Source: a virus
Length of the DNA: 14,359 nt
Virus genome (UHGV): UHGV-0236088
Direction: 5' to 3' (one strand)
Position 1 is the first letter of the stretch. Every line of letters starts with the position of its first letter. The position numbers were made by a program, and so were the translations under genes. Shown here piece after piece: positions 10,773-14,359 of this stretch. Under the pieces are notes generated by a model. It made no database searches, was not told the DNA's origin, and saw only the letters and a list, made by a program, of their open reading frames with translations.

Positions 10773-11024
10773 TTAGAAATAATCCTGATCAGTTCCCCAT
10801 CGGTTGTTTAAATACCCCACCAGCCAGACAAAACGCTCGATACTGATTAGCGGGGCGACCTTGCGATAATGCTTGTCTAATATCAGCCGCGTGGCTTTAT
10901 CGCTGTAGCCGTTCTTTTCCACCTCCGCTTTGCAGGCCGAAAGCGCCGCGCGGGCGGCAGTTTTTACGGCGTTAAATTGCGGCTCTGACATATTGAATAA
11001 AGCCATAGGATCACCATGTATCAT
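10773..11024 (-). CDS. Hypothetical protein, 83 aa
   Basis: ORF track entry. Weak RBS; the start could be the internal ATG giving MALFNM.... Confidence 0.4.
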   Translation of the reverse strand: MIHGDPMALFNMSEPQFNAVKTAARAALSACKAEVEKNGYSDKATRLILDKHYRKVAPLISIERFVWLVGYLNNRWGTDQDYF

Positions 11025-11247
11025 CCCAATCCGGCGCGGCAGTCAAGCAAAAACCAATGAATGCGCTCACAGCCAATAAAGCGCGGGCTGCAAAAAGAAT
11101 ATTCCCAATGTTGTTAAATTCAGGCAGCGACCACGTAATAAACATACCCCCCAGCATAATAACACCGATAACAGTCAGGGCCGCCAGGAAAACAAAAAGC
11201 GTAGCCAAAAGCCACGCCCCCAACCAGTTAAAAAAGCTCTTAAGCAT
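11011..11247 (-). CDS. Small membrane protein, about 78 aa, two or three predicted transmembrane helices
   Basis: Start set at ATG 11247 with GAGGACG RBS (MLKSFFNWLGAWLLATLFVFLAALTVIGVIMLGGMF...). The ORF-track start at 11262 is a TTG. Confidence 0.45.
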   Translation of the reverse strand: MLKSFFNWLGAWLLATLFVFLAALTVIGVIMLGGMFITWSLPEFNNIGNILFAARALLAVSAFIGFCLTAAPDWDDTW

Positions 11248-11248
11248 T

Positions 11249-11452
11249 TTAAACGTCCTCAATTACCCCGCCTTTCACGCGCTCTTTAATATCCCATACG
11301 TGAGGCTTGCATATTTCTTGATAGTAGTGATCCGGCCTGCTGCCGAAATACCATTTGCCATCCATATAAAAATAAACGCCAGAAAAATTTCCTGGCGCTG
11401 CCTTTGTTGCTGCTTCTGGAATTTTCCATTCCATGTAATGTTTAAATATCAT
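11249..11452 (-). CDS. Hypothetical protein, 67 aa
   Basis: ORF track entry. The RBS is distant, so the start is uncertain. Confidence 0.4.
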   Translation of the reverse strand: MIFKHYMEWKIPEAATKAAPGNFSGVYFYMDGKWYFGSRPDHYYQEICKPHVWDIKERVKGGVIEDV

Positions 11453-11636: not shown

Positions 11637-11644
11637 GCCTCACC

Positions 11645-11732
11645 TCATATGGTATTCAATAAGCCACCTGATAAACAGACATAAGGCAATAAAACCCCAG
11701 CAACAGCACATATAAAACAATGTGTCGTCCAT
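11645..11732 (-). CDS. Candidate hydrophobic micro-protein, 29 aa (below the ORF-track cutoff)
   Basis: ATG at 11732 with GAGG 7 nt upstream. Translation MDDTLFYMCCCWGFIALCLFIRWLIEYHMR. Its stop overlaps the RBS of the next gene. Confidence 0.3.
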
Positions 11733-12686: not shown

Positions 12687-13019
12687 TTATAGTGGGTGAT
12701 GCCATTTCATTTCTGTTTCTGAATTAAGCGGGTTTCCTTCGCTTGAAAGGAATAAATCACGCTCCCGTTTCAGTTCTTCCGGGCTTATTTCTATTTCATC
12801 AATCTGACCGAACGATCCCGGCATCATTCGTTTTAAATCAGATAGCGGACGCATAAGGCCGCAGCCGCGTAACAGCATATCGACCGCGAATTGTCTACGT
12901 CCGGCGGCGTCATTAAAGCGCCGTGCCCAGGGCACAACCACGATCCTGCGTTCGAATTCGATAAATAGTGATAGCTTGTTTGTTTCGCTATCATATGCTA
13001 TATGGAATTTAATTTTCAT
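12687..13019 (-). CDS. Hypothetical protein, 110 aa
   Basis: GAGGTG upstream of ATG at 13019. Confidence 0.5.
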   Translation of the reverse strand: MKIKFHIAYDSETNKLSLFIEFERRIVVVPWARRFNDAAGRRQFAVDMLLRGCGLMRPLSDLKRMMPGSFGQIDEIEISPEELKRERDLFLSSEGNPLNSETEMKWHHPL

Positions 13020-13200
13020 TTAACACCTCGACGTATTGCTCAAGATGCCATGTACCAACTTCATCCATGTTTTCGTCGTATATAATGACCTCTCCGCCTT
13101 GCCTGAATCTGAAAGCAGTAGCTGTAAATTCACGGCCCCACCACGCCTTTAATCGCTCCCCACCTTTCATGTGTTTAACCTTTACTTCTTTTATGGCCAT
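13009..13200 (-). CDS. Hypothetical protein, 63 aa
   Basis: ORF track entry. Weak RBS; an alternative ATG lies at 13170. Confidence 0.4.
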   Translation of the reverse strand: MAIKEVKVKHMKGGERLKAWWGREFTATAFRFRQGGEVIIYDENMDEVGTWHLEQYVEVLNEN

Positions 13201-13463
13201 ACGCCGAACATCCCATTCAGTCCGGCGAACAATTTCCGCCAGTGGTTTTCAACATAAGCCCGGAACGGCTTAACGCGAACATTGCGGGCCTTCAGTTCAA
13301 TCTTGTCGAAGAAACGCGGCTCTATAATTGTTCCGTCCAGATATTTAACCAGGATCGGGCGCTCAAGATCGTTATATGTCTTGTTCAGCACAACCAGACC
13401 AGGGTCACTACGATATTCAGACAAAACAACAAGATCGCCCTCTTTTACATTCCAAGTAACCAT
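13191..13463 (-). CDS. Hypothetical protein, 90 aa
   Basis: AAGGTGG upstream of ATG at 13463; single-nucleotide overlap with the stop of the preceding micro-ORF. Confidence 0.5.
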   Translation of the reverse strand: MVTWNVKEGDLVVLSEYRSDPGLVVLNKTYNDLERPILVKYLDGTIIEPRFFDKIELKARNVRVKPFRAYVENHWRKLFAGLNGMFGVWP

Positions 13464-13582
13464 CACATCACCACCTTACCAATAAAAGCCAATACCGCAG
13501 CAAGTGCTCCGCAAAATACAATCGTAAACAGGAAACAAATAACGCAAAACGCGACCGTCACAATATCCTTACCGACTTTCAT
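13463..13582 (-). CDS. Candidate single-pass hydrophobic peptide, 39 aa (below the ORF-track cutoff)
   Basis: GAGG 7 nt upstream of ATG at 13582. Translation MKVGKDIVTVAFCVICFLFTIVFCGALAAVLAFIGKVVM. Stop overlaps the next start. Confidence 0.4.
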   Translation of the reverse strand: MKVGKDIVTVAFCVICFLFTIVFCGALAAVLAFIGKVVM

Positions 13583-13590
13583 GATTGGCC

Positions 13591-13704
13591 TCACATGTTA
13601 GTGATGAGTTTAATGATCGCTACCGTGATATAAAGCGATACGCTGAGATACAGCACGGCGATAGATAAAGCCGCAAGCAATGCGGCAATTTTTGCAAGGT
13701 TCAT
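13591..13704 (-). CDS. Candidate single-pass hydrophobic peptide, 37 aa (below the ORF-track cutoff)
   Basis: GGAGGGTGG upstream of ATG at 13704; ATGA overlap with the upstream stop. Translation MNLAKIAALLAALSIAVLYLSVSLYITVAIIKLITNM. Confidence 0.4.
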   Translation of the reverse strand: MNLAKIAALLAALSIAVLYLSVSLYITVAIIKLITNM

Positions 13705-13925
13705 TTGCCACCCTCCGCAATGAACTTATTAAGCCATTTGTTATTAGCCAGCCGTTCGGTATCTTCGCCGAATGATTTACGGTCGCTTAATTCCTGGCGA
13801 GTAAGCTGAGGACATTTATCGTGCCACCCCGCAGACGTTTCGAACTCATACAGGCCGCCGTCAAAATAAATAAGCTCATCACGACCGTCAGGAATTTCCT
13901 TGTCTACTTCTTTTTCTTTAATCAT
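13701..13925 (-). CDS. Hypothetical protein, 74 aa
   Basis: GAGGTG 6 nt upstream of ATG at 13925. Confidence 0.5.
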   Translation of the reverse strand: MIKEKEVDKEIPDGRDELIYFDGGLYEFETSAGWHDKCPQLTRQELSDRKSFGEDTERLANNKWLNKFIAEGGK

Positions 13926-13937
13926 GATAACACCTCA

Positions 13938-14216
13938 TTAATCGTTAATGACCTGGCCCATACGCCCGCGATATTTGCGCATACGTGGATCGACATATTC
14001 AGGCCAATGCATATCCGGTTTTCTTTGCAGTGGGTAAAAACTTGCCTGCCAGTTGTCGAACCATATTTGCTTTGCGTACAGGTCACTAAATCTTTTCGCC
14101 ATCCGATCCGCTGCCGTGCCGCATAAAAAAAGCCCGCGATCGATTTGATCACGGGCTTCTCTTAAAACTTTCTCTTTTGTTCGCGGCGGCGGTGGTGCTT
14201 TTAAATAATTACCCAT
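13938..14216 (-). CDS. Hypothetical protein; start uncertain (92 aa from ATG 14216, or 54 aa from ATG 14102)
   Basis: ORF track entry. The long form would be translated through the terminator-like hairpin at 14124-14158; the short form MAKRFSDLYAKQIWF... starts just downstream of it. Confidence 0.4.
   Translation of the reverse strand: MGNYLKAPPPPRTKEKVLREARDQIDRGLFLCGTAADRMAKRFSDLYAKQIWFDNWQASFYPLQRKPDMHWPEYVDPRMRKYRGRMGQVIND
14124..14158 (-). terminator. Intrinsic terminator-like hairpin downstream of ssb
   Basis: Minus strand AAGCCCG (14158-14152), 15 nt loop, CGGGCTT (14136-14130), followed by a T-run ending TTTTTTTAT at 14124. Lies about 75 nt past the ssb stop. Confidence 0.5.
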
Positions 14217-14231
14217 CGCTAACCTATTGAA

Positions 14232-14359
14232 TCAGAATGGAATATCATCGTCGAAGTCCATCGGCGGCGGATTATTCCCGTTATTATTTTGAGGCGGTGG
14301 CGCTTTCTGCTGCTGGCCTTGCTGCTGGCCTTGTTGGTTAACGTTCATGAATTCAAATT
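14232..14359 (-). CDS. ssb: Single-stranded DNA-binding protein, C-terminal end (gene starts beyond the window)
   Basis: Frame ends ...MNVNQQGQQQGQQQKAPPPQNNNGNNPPPMDFDDDIPF then TGA at 14234-14232. A Gly/Gln/Pro-rich linker followed by the acidic tip DFDDDIPF is diagnostic of bacterial and phage SSB. Confidence 0.85.
   Translation of the reverse strand, partial: FEFMNVNQQGQQQGQQQKAPPPQNNNGNNPPPMDFDDDIPF

Follow-up and report, generated by a model that had tools for sequence, protein, structure and literature searches.

Two conserved micro-proteins, each a predicted single membrane helix, in the early operon of mEp021-like coliphages

AcrZ, MgrB, MgtR, SgrT, CydX and KdpF are small membrane proteins with a single helix that act as regulators of larger membrane proteins. 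Among phage proteins, T4 Imm and HK97 gp15 are injection-blocking exclusion proteins; they are larger than the two peptides described here and have more than one helix. Many of the characterised bacterial proteins that are shorter than 50 aa and have one membrane helix bind larger membrane proteins (PMC12648545; PMC11188072). In this study, we analysed a window of 14,359 nucleotides (the whole stretch of DNA, from the UHGV virus genome UHGV-0236088), which belongs to a mEp021-like (mEpimmI) temperate coliphage. The mEpimmI phages were reported to be just as common in human faeces as lambdoid phages (PMC11893012). The virion proteomics in the same paper would miss non-structural early peptides.

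Two short genes, orfA and orfB, occupy the gap between a 74-aa gene (orf74) and a 90-aa gene (orf90). The first-pass annotation, made from the sequence alone, had proposed two ORFs of 37 and 39 aa at 13463-13704, and both were present there on the minus strand. Gene orfA (13591-13704, minus strand) starts with ATG and encodes 37 aa, MNLAKIAALLAALSIAVLYLSVSLYITVAIIKLITNM. Gene orfB (13463-13582, minus strand) also starts with ATG and encodes 39 aa, MKVGKDIVTVAFCVICFLFTIVFCGALAAVLAFIGKVVM; an alternative GTG start 12 nt upstream would extend the product to 43 aa. Good Shine-Dalgarno sites had been claimed for both, and we confirmed them. That of orfA is GGAGG (13712-13716, minus strand), 7 nt before the ATG and within the last codons of orf74. 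The motif GCGGAGG was kept at this site in all listed relatives, and the codons after it vary. That of orfB is TGAGG (13589-13593, minus strand), which overlaps the stop codon of orfA and leaves 6 nt between GAGG and the ATG; all relatives had GTGAGG or GGGGTGAG here. Stop/start overlaps with the neighbours had also been claimed. They were found at the two outer junctions, where the TGA of orf74 and the ATG of orfA overlap as ATGA, and the TGA of orfB and the ATG of orf90 have one base in common (TGATG). The claim did not hold between orfA and orfB, which are separated by a spacer of 8 nt in the window and of 2-9 nt across relatives.

Both genes lie in the early operon, between nutR1 and nutR2, and this operon is antiterminated by the N-like protein Gp17 (PMC11893012). 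The setting in a phage early operon, assumed in the first-pass annotation, was confirmed by synteny with mEp021, in which the order is gp17(N-like)-erf-ssb-abc2-gp22-[orfA-orfB]-gp23...ipe...nutR2 (PMC11893012, section 3.5). The upstream neighbour orf74 (13701-13925, minus strand) is the homolog of mEp021 gp22 (PHROG 28542), and the downstream neighbour orf90 (13191-13463, minus strand) is the homolog of gp23 (PHROG 28396). The position between these two homologs, downstream of erf-ssb-abc2, was occupied by orfA and orfB in all seven sequenced phages; the same held for 11 E. coli prophages and for 43 IMG/VR contigs, which are ~52-57 kb long. At all loci orf74 was found upstream of orfA. The most distant match of orf74 (P0162) turned out to be frameshifted and to come from the same phage group; this locus also has both micro-ORFs. 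We found no promoter-like site on either strand within 13020-14359; the sole promoter-like site in the scanned region was at 12990-13019 on the minus strand.

A lone open frame of ~37 codons is weak evidence for a gene, because ~17% of random frames of this length stay open by a first-principles estimate. The decisive evidence is comparative. We compared 62 related loci, whose mean pairwise difference within orfA/orfB was ~23%. Frame conservation in related phages had been named in the first-pass annotation as a test; we ran it, and the frames were conserved, with intact copies of orfB at 62/62 loci and of orfA at 61/62. The in-frame dN/dS was 0.19 for orfA and 0.33 for orfB, similar to that of the neighbouring orf74 (0.21). 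Four of the other five frames of this stretch gave values of 0.77-1.9, and the antisense frame that shares the wobble positions gave 0.30-0.40, as expected. Substitutions fell mostly at third codon positions (31/22/66 and 32/27/54 for codon positions 1/2/3). Length variants differed by whole codons, the products being 35, 37 or 39 aa long for orfA and 38, 39 or 40 aa for orfB. The ATGA overlap of orf74 and orfA was retained at every locus with a readable orfA, and an overlap of 1 or 4 nt between orfB and orf90 was retained at 62/62 loci. In three STEC genomes, a KilA-N gene was inserted exactly at the start of orfB. Both micro-ORFs remained intact there and kept their own ribosome-binding sites, which marks orfA and orfB as separate cistrons. 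The purifying selection on the two genes is frame-specific. From these sequence comparisons, we are nearly certain that orfA and orfB are real, conserved genes.

Frameshifted copies of the two genes exist and are rare (L038, P0023-P0026). An alternative overlapping frame (MPNAW..., ~50 aa), which is open in many relatives, was rejected as coding because its dN/dS was 1.0-1.6. The possibility that orfA and orfB are tandem duplicates of one gene was also rejected; the profile-profile probability in hhalign was 1.5%.

The stretch might instead be non-coding in function, as an internal terminator or RNA structure, or its ORFs might merely relay ribosomes to orf90. The GenBank record of mEp021 has no CDS for orfA or orfB; what it shows within orfA is a predicted terminator, 'TERM_2'. 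PGAP also leaves a gap of ~237 nt unannotated in most E. coli prophages. A terminator-like hairpin is indeed present in the window at codons 7-12 of orfA (GCCGCA-TTGCT-TGCGGC followed by TTTATCT; 13670-13686, minus strand) and corresponds to TERM_2. However, the hairpin with its T-tract occurred at only 18/61 loci, compared with a peptide that was kept at 61. It is thus not a conserved element, and we rejected a terminator as the main function; most likely, the hairpin is a by-product of Ala/Leu codons. Rfam gave no match in the window. A pure ribosome relay would leave non-synonymous sites unconstrained, whereas selection was found to be purifying on the amino-acid sequences in a frame-specific way. 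On this comparative evidence, a non-coding role appears scarcely credible and already largely refuted.

A third candidate had been described as a cysteine-rich ORF of 29 aa at 11645-11732. Such an ORF exists and is conserved, and its size and position need correction to 30 aa at 11640-11732 on the minus strand (MDDTLFYMCCCWGFIALCLFIRWLIEYHMR). It is hydrophobic as well as cysteine-rich, and GAGG lies 7 nt before its ATG. It was intact in 7/7 related phages and at 38/38 readable loci, the metagenomic ones having been chosen by a back-translated pattern, which makes the set biased. Its dN/dS was 0.18 in frame and 0.86 and 1.64 out of frame. Searches of Pfam, PHROGs, NCBIfam and PADLOC gave no significant match for the 30-aa product. 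This third micro-ORF is probably a real gene too.

In several related phages orfA and orfB have already been annotated, as hypothetical proteins: mEp010_29/_30, mEp013_28/_29, mEp044_27/_28, mEp515_31/_32, mEp554_27/_28 and MagusPhagus CDS0113/CDS0112. PGAP annotated orfB once (WP_263906574.1, 40 aa). Across the seven phages, orfB was 46-82% identical by tblastn, and the variants of orfA were 46-97% identical. Neither gene had a significant family in Pfam, PHROGs, NCBIfam or PADLOC. An exhaustive HMMER search of 1.84 billion representative proteins with the orfB profile returned only this phage group's own family. A concatenated profile of orfA and orfB returned only 40-aa variants of orfB and frameshift products, from a library that apparently has no entries below 40 aa. 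With orfB as the query, tblastn matched the seven mEpimmI phages only when searched against phages, and gave no match against plasmids. With orfA it gave no match against phages, a result tentatively attributed to the low-complexity filter. Among species-representative genomes, no relative of orf90 or orfB was found. Judged from these searches, orfA and orfB are restricted to the mEp021-like phage group.

Each micro-protein had been described earlier as essentially one transmembrane helix. This agreed with hydropathy for both products and with an AlphaFold2 model for orfB only. The hydrophobic core of orfA spans about residues 6-31, with K5 and K32 on either side, and its C-terminal half, YLSVSLYITVAIIKLIT, is the best conserved part. 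The product of orfB begins with MKVGKD and has a core of about residues 7-34 that is rich in Phe and Cys. Residues F12, G25 and A28-A29 of orfB are invariant, and C13 is nearly so. The GRAVY values were 1.76 for orfA and 2.04 for orfB; the Hessa insertion energies, simply summed, came to -1.8 and -4.9 kcal/mol, respectively. In the AlphaFold2 model, orfB formed one continuous helix from residue 2 to 38 (pLDDT 89). The tails of both products have at most six residues and one Lys each, and neither helix contains a charged residue. Hydropathy and the Hessa sum support a predicted single span for each product, and for orfB the modelled helix does so too. Both peptides would then be expected to insert into the membrane. 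The helical periodicity of conservation was not significant, since a helical moment as large as the observed one arose in 731 and 1723 of 5000 shuffles, and a single binding face therefore does not stand out. Overall, the sequence evidence favours the view of the first-pass annotation that orfA and orfB are real genes, linked in translation, whose products are hydrophobic micro-proteins with a single helix.

We propose that orfA and orfB are two separately initiated genes whose products would each span the inner membrane with one helix. They belong to a fixed four-gene string, orf74-orfA-orfB-orf90, in which the cistrons overlap or nearly touch. With cistrons so close, ribosomes probably pass from gene to gene and the four products would be made together. 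As the early operon is antiterminated by Gp17, the peptides would be expected soon after infection or induction, and not from a resting prophage. Because they have no domain outside the membrane, they could act only within the bilayer. The likeliest mechanism is that the two helices work as a pair, through helix-helix contacts with each other and with a larger membrane protein, which could be a membrane protein of the host or a product of the same cassette. Such binding would change envelope physiology in the early lytic phase. We infer, in short, that both peptides are translated and inserted early and act by binding. By analogy with the small regulators of bacteria, we assign helix-helix binding to a membrane protein early in lytic growth a probability of roughly 0.45, and the same value applies to the whole explanation, genes and mechanism together.

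Another explanation is that orfA and orfB are membrane-damaging toxins, which would form pores or depolarise the inner membrane. Their action would then be like that of type I toxins or small holins, and their role, host shutdown early in lytic growth, like that of lambda Kil. Both products are very hydrophobic, and their length of 37-39 aa falls in the size class of type I toxins (PMC8309996, PMC2887945). The conserved hydroxyl residues within the helix of orfA (Y19, S23, Y25 and T27) could line a pore, although the helices are without internal charged residues. The same operon encodes Ipe, the overexpression of which causes vesiculation, HlyE release and cell death (PMC6379469, PMC11893012); its homolog in the window is at 10773-11024. 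Envelope-active early genes thus exist in this phage. However, nothing of a type I architecture was found for orfA and orfB, neither a promoter of their own nor an antisense promoter, Rfam antitoxin or hok-type RNA. Pfam, NCBIfam, PHROGs and PADLOC gave no significant match to the type I toxin families (Hok, Ldr, TisB, Ibs, Sho, Zor, Fst and others), and there was no match to toxin, holin or Kil families. The two genes are also outside the lysis cassette. In mEp021 the genes for holin, lysozyme and lysis (gp46-48) lie ~9 kb further downstream, after the Q gene. Moreover, a phage that needs about another hour of host metabolism would be harmed by the early death of its host. We therefore consider a toxin role unlikely. 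A role as a holin or pinholin was rejected on account of the early operon location and the lack of a charged hydrophilic C-terminal tail.

The two genes behave as one cassette and are inherited as a pair. In a Mantel test, the nucleotide distance matrices of orfA and orfB were correlated with a rho of 0.55 (p = 0.0005); two halves of one gene gave 0.53. Comparatively, the rho between the 3' end of orf74 and orfA was 0.08, despite their physical overlap. Each of three deep allele types of orfA occurred with its own type of orfB and never with another (44, 11 and 6 loci), and the variants of orf74 and orf90 were reshuffled around these types. As the two genes are 8 nt apart, the perfect allele pairing could reflect plain physical linkage. 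They also form the most divergent stretch nearby, with mean nucleotide differences of 0.24 and 0.23 versus 0.08-0.19 in the flanks. Such divergence would also fit an arms-race role, for example in exclusion or toxicity.

As early-phase superinfection-exclusion factors, orfA and orfB might block the entry of other phages' DNA via an inner-membrane component during replication, in a way that would be like T4 Imm or HK97 gp15. Being the most divergent segment nearby, with three deep and co-inherited allele types, they have the pattern expected of specificity or arms-race genes, and the predicted membrane location and early expression would suit this role. Nevertheless, the selection on them is purifying and not diversifying (dN/dS 0.19 and 0.33), and experiments have already accounted for exclusion in this group through Lpp lipoproteins (PMC11893012, section 3.7). 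The lipobox [LVI][ASTVI][GAS]C given in that section is absent from both peptides. On direct reading, orfA has no Cys, and the contexts of Cys in orfB (VAFC, CVIC and IVFC) are unfit because Phe or Ile precedes. A promoter of their own for expression in the lysogen was not found either. Early-phase exclusion is thus quite unlikely. Exclusion by a resting prophage through orfA and orfB is disfavoured, because there is no promoter-like site nearby on their strand and no lipobox, and because Lpp has already been shown to act.

Some homologs of orf90 carry the PGAP label 'toxin-antitoxin system toxin subunit'. It has to be considered whether orfA and orfB are antitoxin-like or anchoring membrane partners of orf90, so that the four genes would form a membrane-linked toxin or regulatory module. 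The 1- or 4-nt overlap of orfB and orf90 at 62/62 loci is the usual layout of an antitoxin followed by a toxin. All orf90 loci have both micro-ORFs (46/46 of the complete IMG/VR loci with orf90), and the hydrophobic and strongly conserved C-terminus of orf90, WRKLFAGLNGMFGVWL, could conceivably touch the membrane. However, the toxin label received no support from Pfam, NCBIfam or PADLOC, from a PDB sequence search, which found no relative, or from a fold search. The AlphaFold2 model of orf90 is poor (pLDDT 56), and its best matches, weak ones, were generic SH3, Tudor or KOW-like barrels with E values of 0.2 or worse, not MazF or CcdB. The variants of orf90 were shuffled relative to the types of orfA and orfB (Mantel rho of 0.33 with orfB and 0.08 with orfA). 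Toxin-antitoxin modules are also normally self-regulated and are not cistrons of an early lytic operon. Such a partnership is highly improbable. It is very unlikely, too, that orf74-orfA-orfB-orf90 is an undescribed four-part early module, in which orfA and orfB, as a co-evolving pair of unrelated micro-proteins, would form a membrane hetero-oligomer that gates or anchors a soluble small-barrel orf90 and determines its specificity; each of the three allele pairs would then be a specificity type. If this were true, the types might reflect, for example, different host membrane targets or discrimination between related phages.

By our comparisons orfA and orfB are almost certainly real, and they are ordinary; the early regions of phages commonly contain small hydrophobic ORFs. 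Two real genes, probably three, are absent from the record of the archetype mEp021 and from most RefSeq prophage annotations. The 'terminator' predicted in that record sits inside orfA and is unconserved, and correcting these points alters the gene map of the phage group. The pair offers a clean, narrow test case for single-membrane-helix phage peptides, with three co-inherited allele pairs in a cultivable phage of E. coli K-12 for which a genetic system is established. Identification of a host target would add one more to the few phage micro-proteins with known partners.

Among described systems, the annotated hypothetical proteins of related phages are identical to orfA and orfB in kind and in position, and their records give no function. 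Within the same early operon, Ipe (mEp021 gp29, 77 aa, 'inducer of pleiotropic effects') is encoded ~2.4 kb downstream of orfA and orfB. It is likewise a small accessory product, with envelope-related effects on overexpression (PMC6379469), but its sequence is unrelated to theirs, its length is double, and it does not consist of a plain membrane helix. T4 Imm, HK97 gp15 and the Lpp/Cor lipoproteins found in mEpimmI and lambdoid phages (PMC11893012) resemble orfA and orfB as small, phage-encoded accessory proteins located in the envelope. Lpp/Cor differ in having a lipobox and in acting from the prophage. The type I toxins Hok, Ldr, TisB, Ibs, Sho and Zor (PMC2887945, PMC8309996) are similar in size and hydrophobicity, and some of these systems are found in prophages. 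In contrast, orfA and orfB lack both a promoter of their own and an antisense RNA gene, and they match no family; they lie within a long operon as coupled cistrons, and their helices contain no charged residues. Regulators of the AcrZ/MgrB type (PMC12648545) are, like orfA and orfB, shorter than 50 aa, with one membrane helix and hardly any soluble part. This class is defined by function and has no sequence relation to orfA and orfB, and its members are chromosomal and stress-regulated, whereas orfA and orfB are phage early genes. The helix-helix binding within the bilayer that has been proposed for these regulators is the mode of action that we favour for orfA and orfB.

The first-pass annotation had placed two short ORFs at 13463-13704, and its coordinates and description were correct save for two small points. 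The minus strand carries every gene in this part of the window. The first ORF, orfA (13591-13704, minus strand, 37 aa: MNLAKIAALLAALSIAVLYLSVSLYITVAIIKLITNM), is flanked upstream by orf74, a 74-aa gene (13701-13925, minus strand). The second, orfB (13463-13582, minus strand, 39 aa: MKVGKDIVTVAFCVICFLFTIVFCGALAAVLAFIGKVVM), is flanked downstream by orf90, a 90-aa gene (13191-13463, minus strand). The stop codon of orf74 and the ATG of orfA overlap as ATGA, and the TGA of orfB and the ATG of orf90 have one base in common. Stop/start overlaps with the neighbours had been described; they exist at these two outer junctions but not between orfA and orfB, where 8 nt separate the orfA stop from the orfB ATG. 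The Shine-Dalgarno sequence of orfA is GGAGG, 7 nt 5′ of its ATG, and that of orfB is GAGG, 6 nt 5′ of its ATG and overlapping the orfA stop codon. A third, cysteine-rich hydrophobic micro-ORF also exists as proposed, although it encodes 30 aa at 11640-11732 rather than 29 aa at 11645-11732.

We compared 62 loci (the window, seven phages, 11 E. coli prophages and 43 IMG/VR contigs). Conservation of the frames in related phages had been suggested as a check, and it was borne out: orfB was intact in 62/62 loci and orfA in 61/62, the sole broken copy (L038) having a frameshift at its start. The ATGA overlap was present in every locus with a readable orfA, the gap between orfA and orfB was always 2-9 nt in this set, and the overlap of orfB with orf90 measured 1 or 4 nt throughout. 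Lengths varied by whole codons (orfA 35, 37 or 39 aa; orfB 38, 39 or 40 aa), and substitutions were concentrated at third codon positions. The constraint was frame-specific. Pooled Nei-Gojobori dN/dS was 0.19 for orfA and 0.33 for orfB, compared with 0.21 for the annotated neighbour orf74; four of the five other frames gave 0.77-1.9, and the antisense frame that shares the wobble positions gave 0.30-0.40, as expected. In three STEC genomes, a KilA-N domain gene (237 aa) was inserted exactly between orfA and orfB, at the orfB start (L012, E. coli STEC308, NZ_CP091020.1, 380-1093 of the extracted region; also STEC306 and STEC307). The ribosome-binding site that normally serves orfB now serves the inserted gene, and orfB follows with a new one. 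Such an insertion is a textbook mark of a cistron boundary. We conclude that orfA and orfB are confirmed as real, conserved genes.

Rare single-base frameshifts were seen in orfA, orfB or orf74 (L038, P0023, P0024, P0025, P0026 and L148), and one of them, P0026 (130 aa), fuses orfB to orf90. Read-archive and metagenome assemblies are the source of most of these copies, so sequencing error or sporadic decay may explain them. Another frame (13610-13720, minus strand; 36 aa with a TTG start in the window) covers most of orfA together with the last part of orf74, and in many relatives it is open to about 50 aa (MPNAW...SLYHGSDH); it was rejected as coding (dN/dS 1.0-1.6).

The mEp021 record predicts a terminator, TERM_2, within orfA, and the window has the same hairpin with a short T-run at 13670-13686. 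A hairpin with a T-tract was found in only 18/61 loci; the remaining loci have other GC-rich folds from Ala codons, without a T-run, and keep the peptide. The hairpin is thus not a conserved feature of this stretch and, at least in that sense, is incidental to the coding sequence.

Both micro-ORFs were present in all 46 complete IMG/VR loci with orf90. Their nucleotide distance matrices were correlated (Mantel rho 0.55, p 0.0005) as strongly as those of the two halves of orf90 (rho 0.53). Three deep orfA allele types paired perfectly with three orfB types (44, 11 and 6 loci, none mixed), and the type II pair adjoins at least four orf74 variants and three orf90 variants. The two thus travel as one cassette, and the genes around them form a mosaic. 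No other stretch nearby is as divergent, with mean nucleotide differences of 0.24 (orfA) and 0.23 (orfB) vs 0.08-0.19 in the flanks. For orfB and the 5′ end of orf90, rho was 0.33. The last 150 nt of orf74 and orfA gave only 0.08 despite their physical overlap, which suggests a recombination hotspot at this junction (about 13700-13760). The 3′ end of orf74 is highly conserved, but which variant of it a locus has shows no correlation with the orfA variant. The co-inheritance fits a functional pairing of orfA and orfB, but close linkage alone could yield the same pattern.

The region matches seven phages (mEp021, mEp010, mEp013, mEp044, mEp515, mEp554 and MagusPhagus) at 85-88% identity. Among 5,426 complete E. 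coli genomes, about 31-35 have prophages that match it too. These phages form the mEpimmI group, which is temperate, Nus-dependent and non-lambdoid (PMC11893012). No family for either peptide was found in Pfam, PHROGs, NCBIfam or PADLOC. An exhaustive HMMER search of 1.84 billion representative proteins with the orfB profile returned, apart from the two clusters of the family itself, nothing but a frameshift product and a spurious repeat protein. In 185,579 species-representative genomes neither orfB nor orf90 had a relative, no orfB relatives were found in plasmids, and homologs of orf74 and orf90 likewise came only from E. coli. By these searches, this is an orphan family that does not extend beyond a single phage group.

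The gene order is syntenic with mEp021: gp17 (the N-like antiterminator), gp18, erf, ssb, abc2, gp22 (orf74), orfA, orfB, gp23 (orf90) and, further along, ipe, methyltransferases and nutR2. Gp17 antiterminates the early operon between nutR1 and nutR2 (PMC11893012 section 3.5), and the synteny places orfA and orfB in this operon, as the first-pass annotation had supposed. The recombination module immediately upstream is recognisable from an Abc2-type anti-RecBCD gene (13938-14216, minus strand; PHROG 656, E 2e-30) and from the part of an SSB gene (14232-14348, minus strand) that encodes the C-terminus, with its typical acidic tail ...DFDDDIPF. The same operon contains, at 10773-11024 (minus strand), a homolog of ipe ('inducer of pleiotropic effects', mEp021 gp29), an 83-aa frame with several in-frame starts that fits the published ORF-4 description (83, 82, 77 and 72 aa). 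Directly upstream of ipe and overlapping it is a strongly hydrophobic 83-aa ORF (MRTFKMLKSFFNWLGAWLLATLFVFLAALTVIGVIMLGG..., 11011-11262, minus strand), probably with two or three membrane spans and placed where mEp021 has gp28; the early operon would thus encode several membrane proteins. No sigma-70-like promoter was predicted near orfA and orfB on their strand, and they should be made only while the early operon is on. A role in exclusion by the resident prophage is disfavoured: no dedicated promoter was found, neither peptide has a lipobox, and exclusion in the mEpimmI group is already explained by Lpp lipoproteins (PMC11893012 section 3.7). A role in exclusion while early lytic growth is under way is unlikely.

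Six related phage records annotate both ORFs as hypothetical proteins, and PGAP annotates a 40-aa orfB once. In the mEp021 record and in most PGAP annotations, about 237 nt at this place are left without a gene. Micro-ORFs are common in the early operon as a whole, and annotation pipelines do not handle them consistently; some relatives have other annotated genes of 29-40 aa (L003 443-544, mEp010_35; L006 455-544, mEp554_33), and mEp021 gp16 and gp18 are likewise very short. For many orf90 homologs the PGAP product name is 'toxin-antitoxin system toxin subunit', and the entry in mEp021 reads 'putative toxin-antitoxin system subunit'. This label is the only basis for regarding orfA and orfB as partners of an orf90 toxin, which is very unlikely, as profile libraries, a PDB sequence search and a fold search gave it no support. 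The predicted fold of orf90 is a low-confidence small beta-barrel with a C-terminal helix. The useful outcome is a set of annotation corrections and a tractable, co-inherited micro-protein pair in a cultivable K-12 phage.

Each peptide consists of a single, very hydrophobic stretch with lysines on both sides (orfA K5 and K32; orfB K2, K5, D6 and K36), with GRAVY values of 1.76 and 2.04 and negative Hessa energies by simple sums. The claim of one transmembrane helix each agrees with the hydropathy predictions for both and, for orfB, with an AlphaFold2 model from 23 homologous sequences (single helix, residues 2-38, pLDDT 89). Conservation of orfA is highest in the C-terminal half (YLSVSLYITVAIIKLIT), with hydroxyl residues inside the helix. 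In orfB, F12, F17, F19, G25 and A28-A29 are invariant; C13 did not vary among the first 15 variants, and the wider set had one replacement, to Tyr. Helical periodicity of this conservation was not significant, and the two peptides were rejected as relatives of each other (hhalign probability 1.5%). The main rival reading, that they are membrane-damaging toxins, is unlikely, considering that the helices carry no internal charges, a type I architecture is absent and the lysis cassette is unconnected with them.

As their tails have at most 6 residues, the peptides would be able to act only within the bilayer. By analogy, we infer a function, with a probability of roughly 0.45, in which paired orfA and orfB would bind a larger membrane protein, encoded by the host or by the cassette, through helix-helix contacts in the early lytic phase. 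The two belong with the single-pass membrane micro-proteins that phages are known to encode, and several GenBank records list both as hypothetical. Many characterised bacterial single-helix micro-proteins work by helix-helix binding to larger membrane proteins (PMC12648545, PMC11188072).
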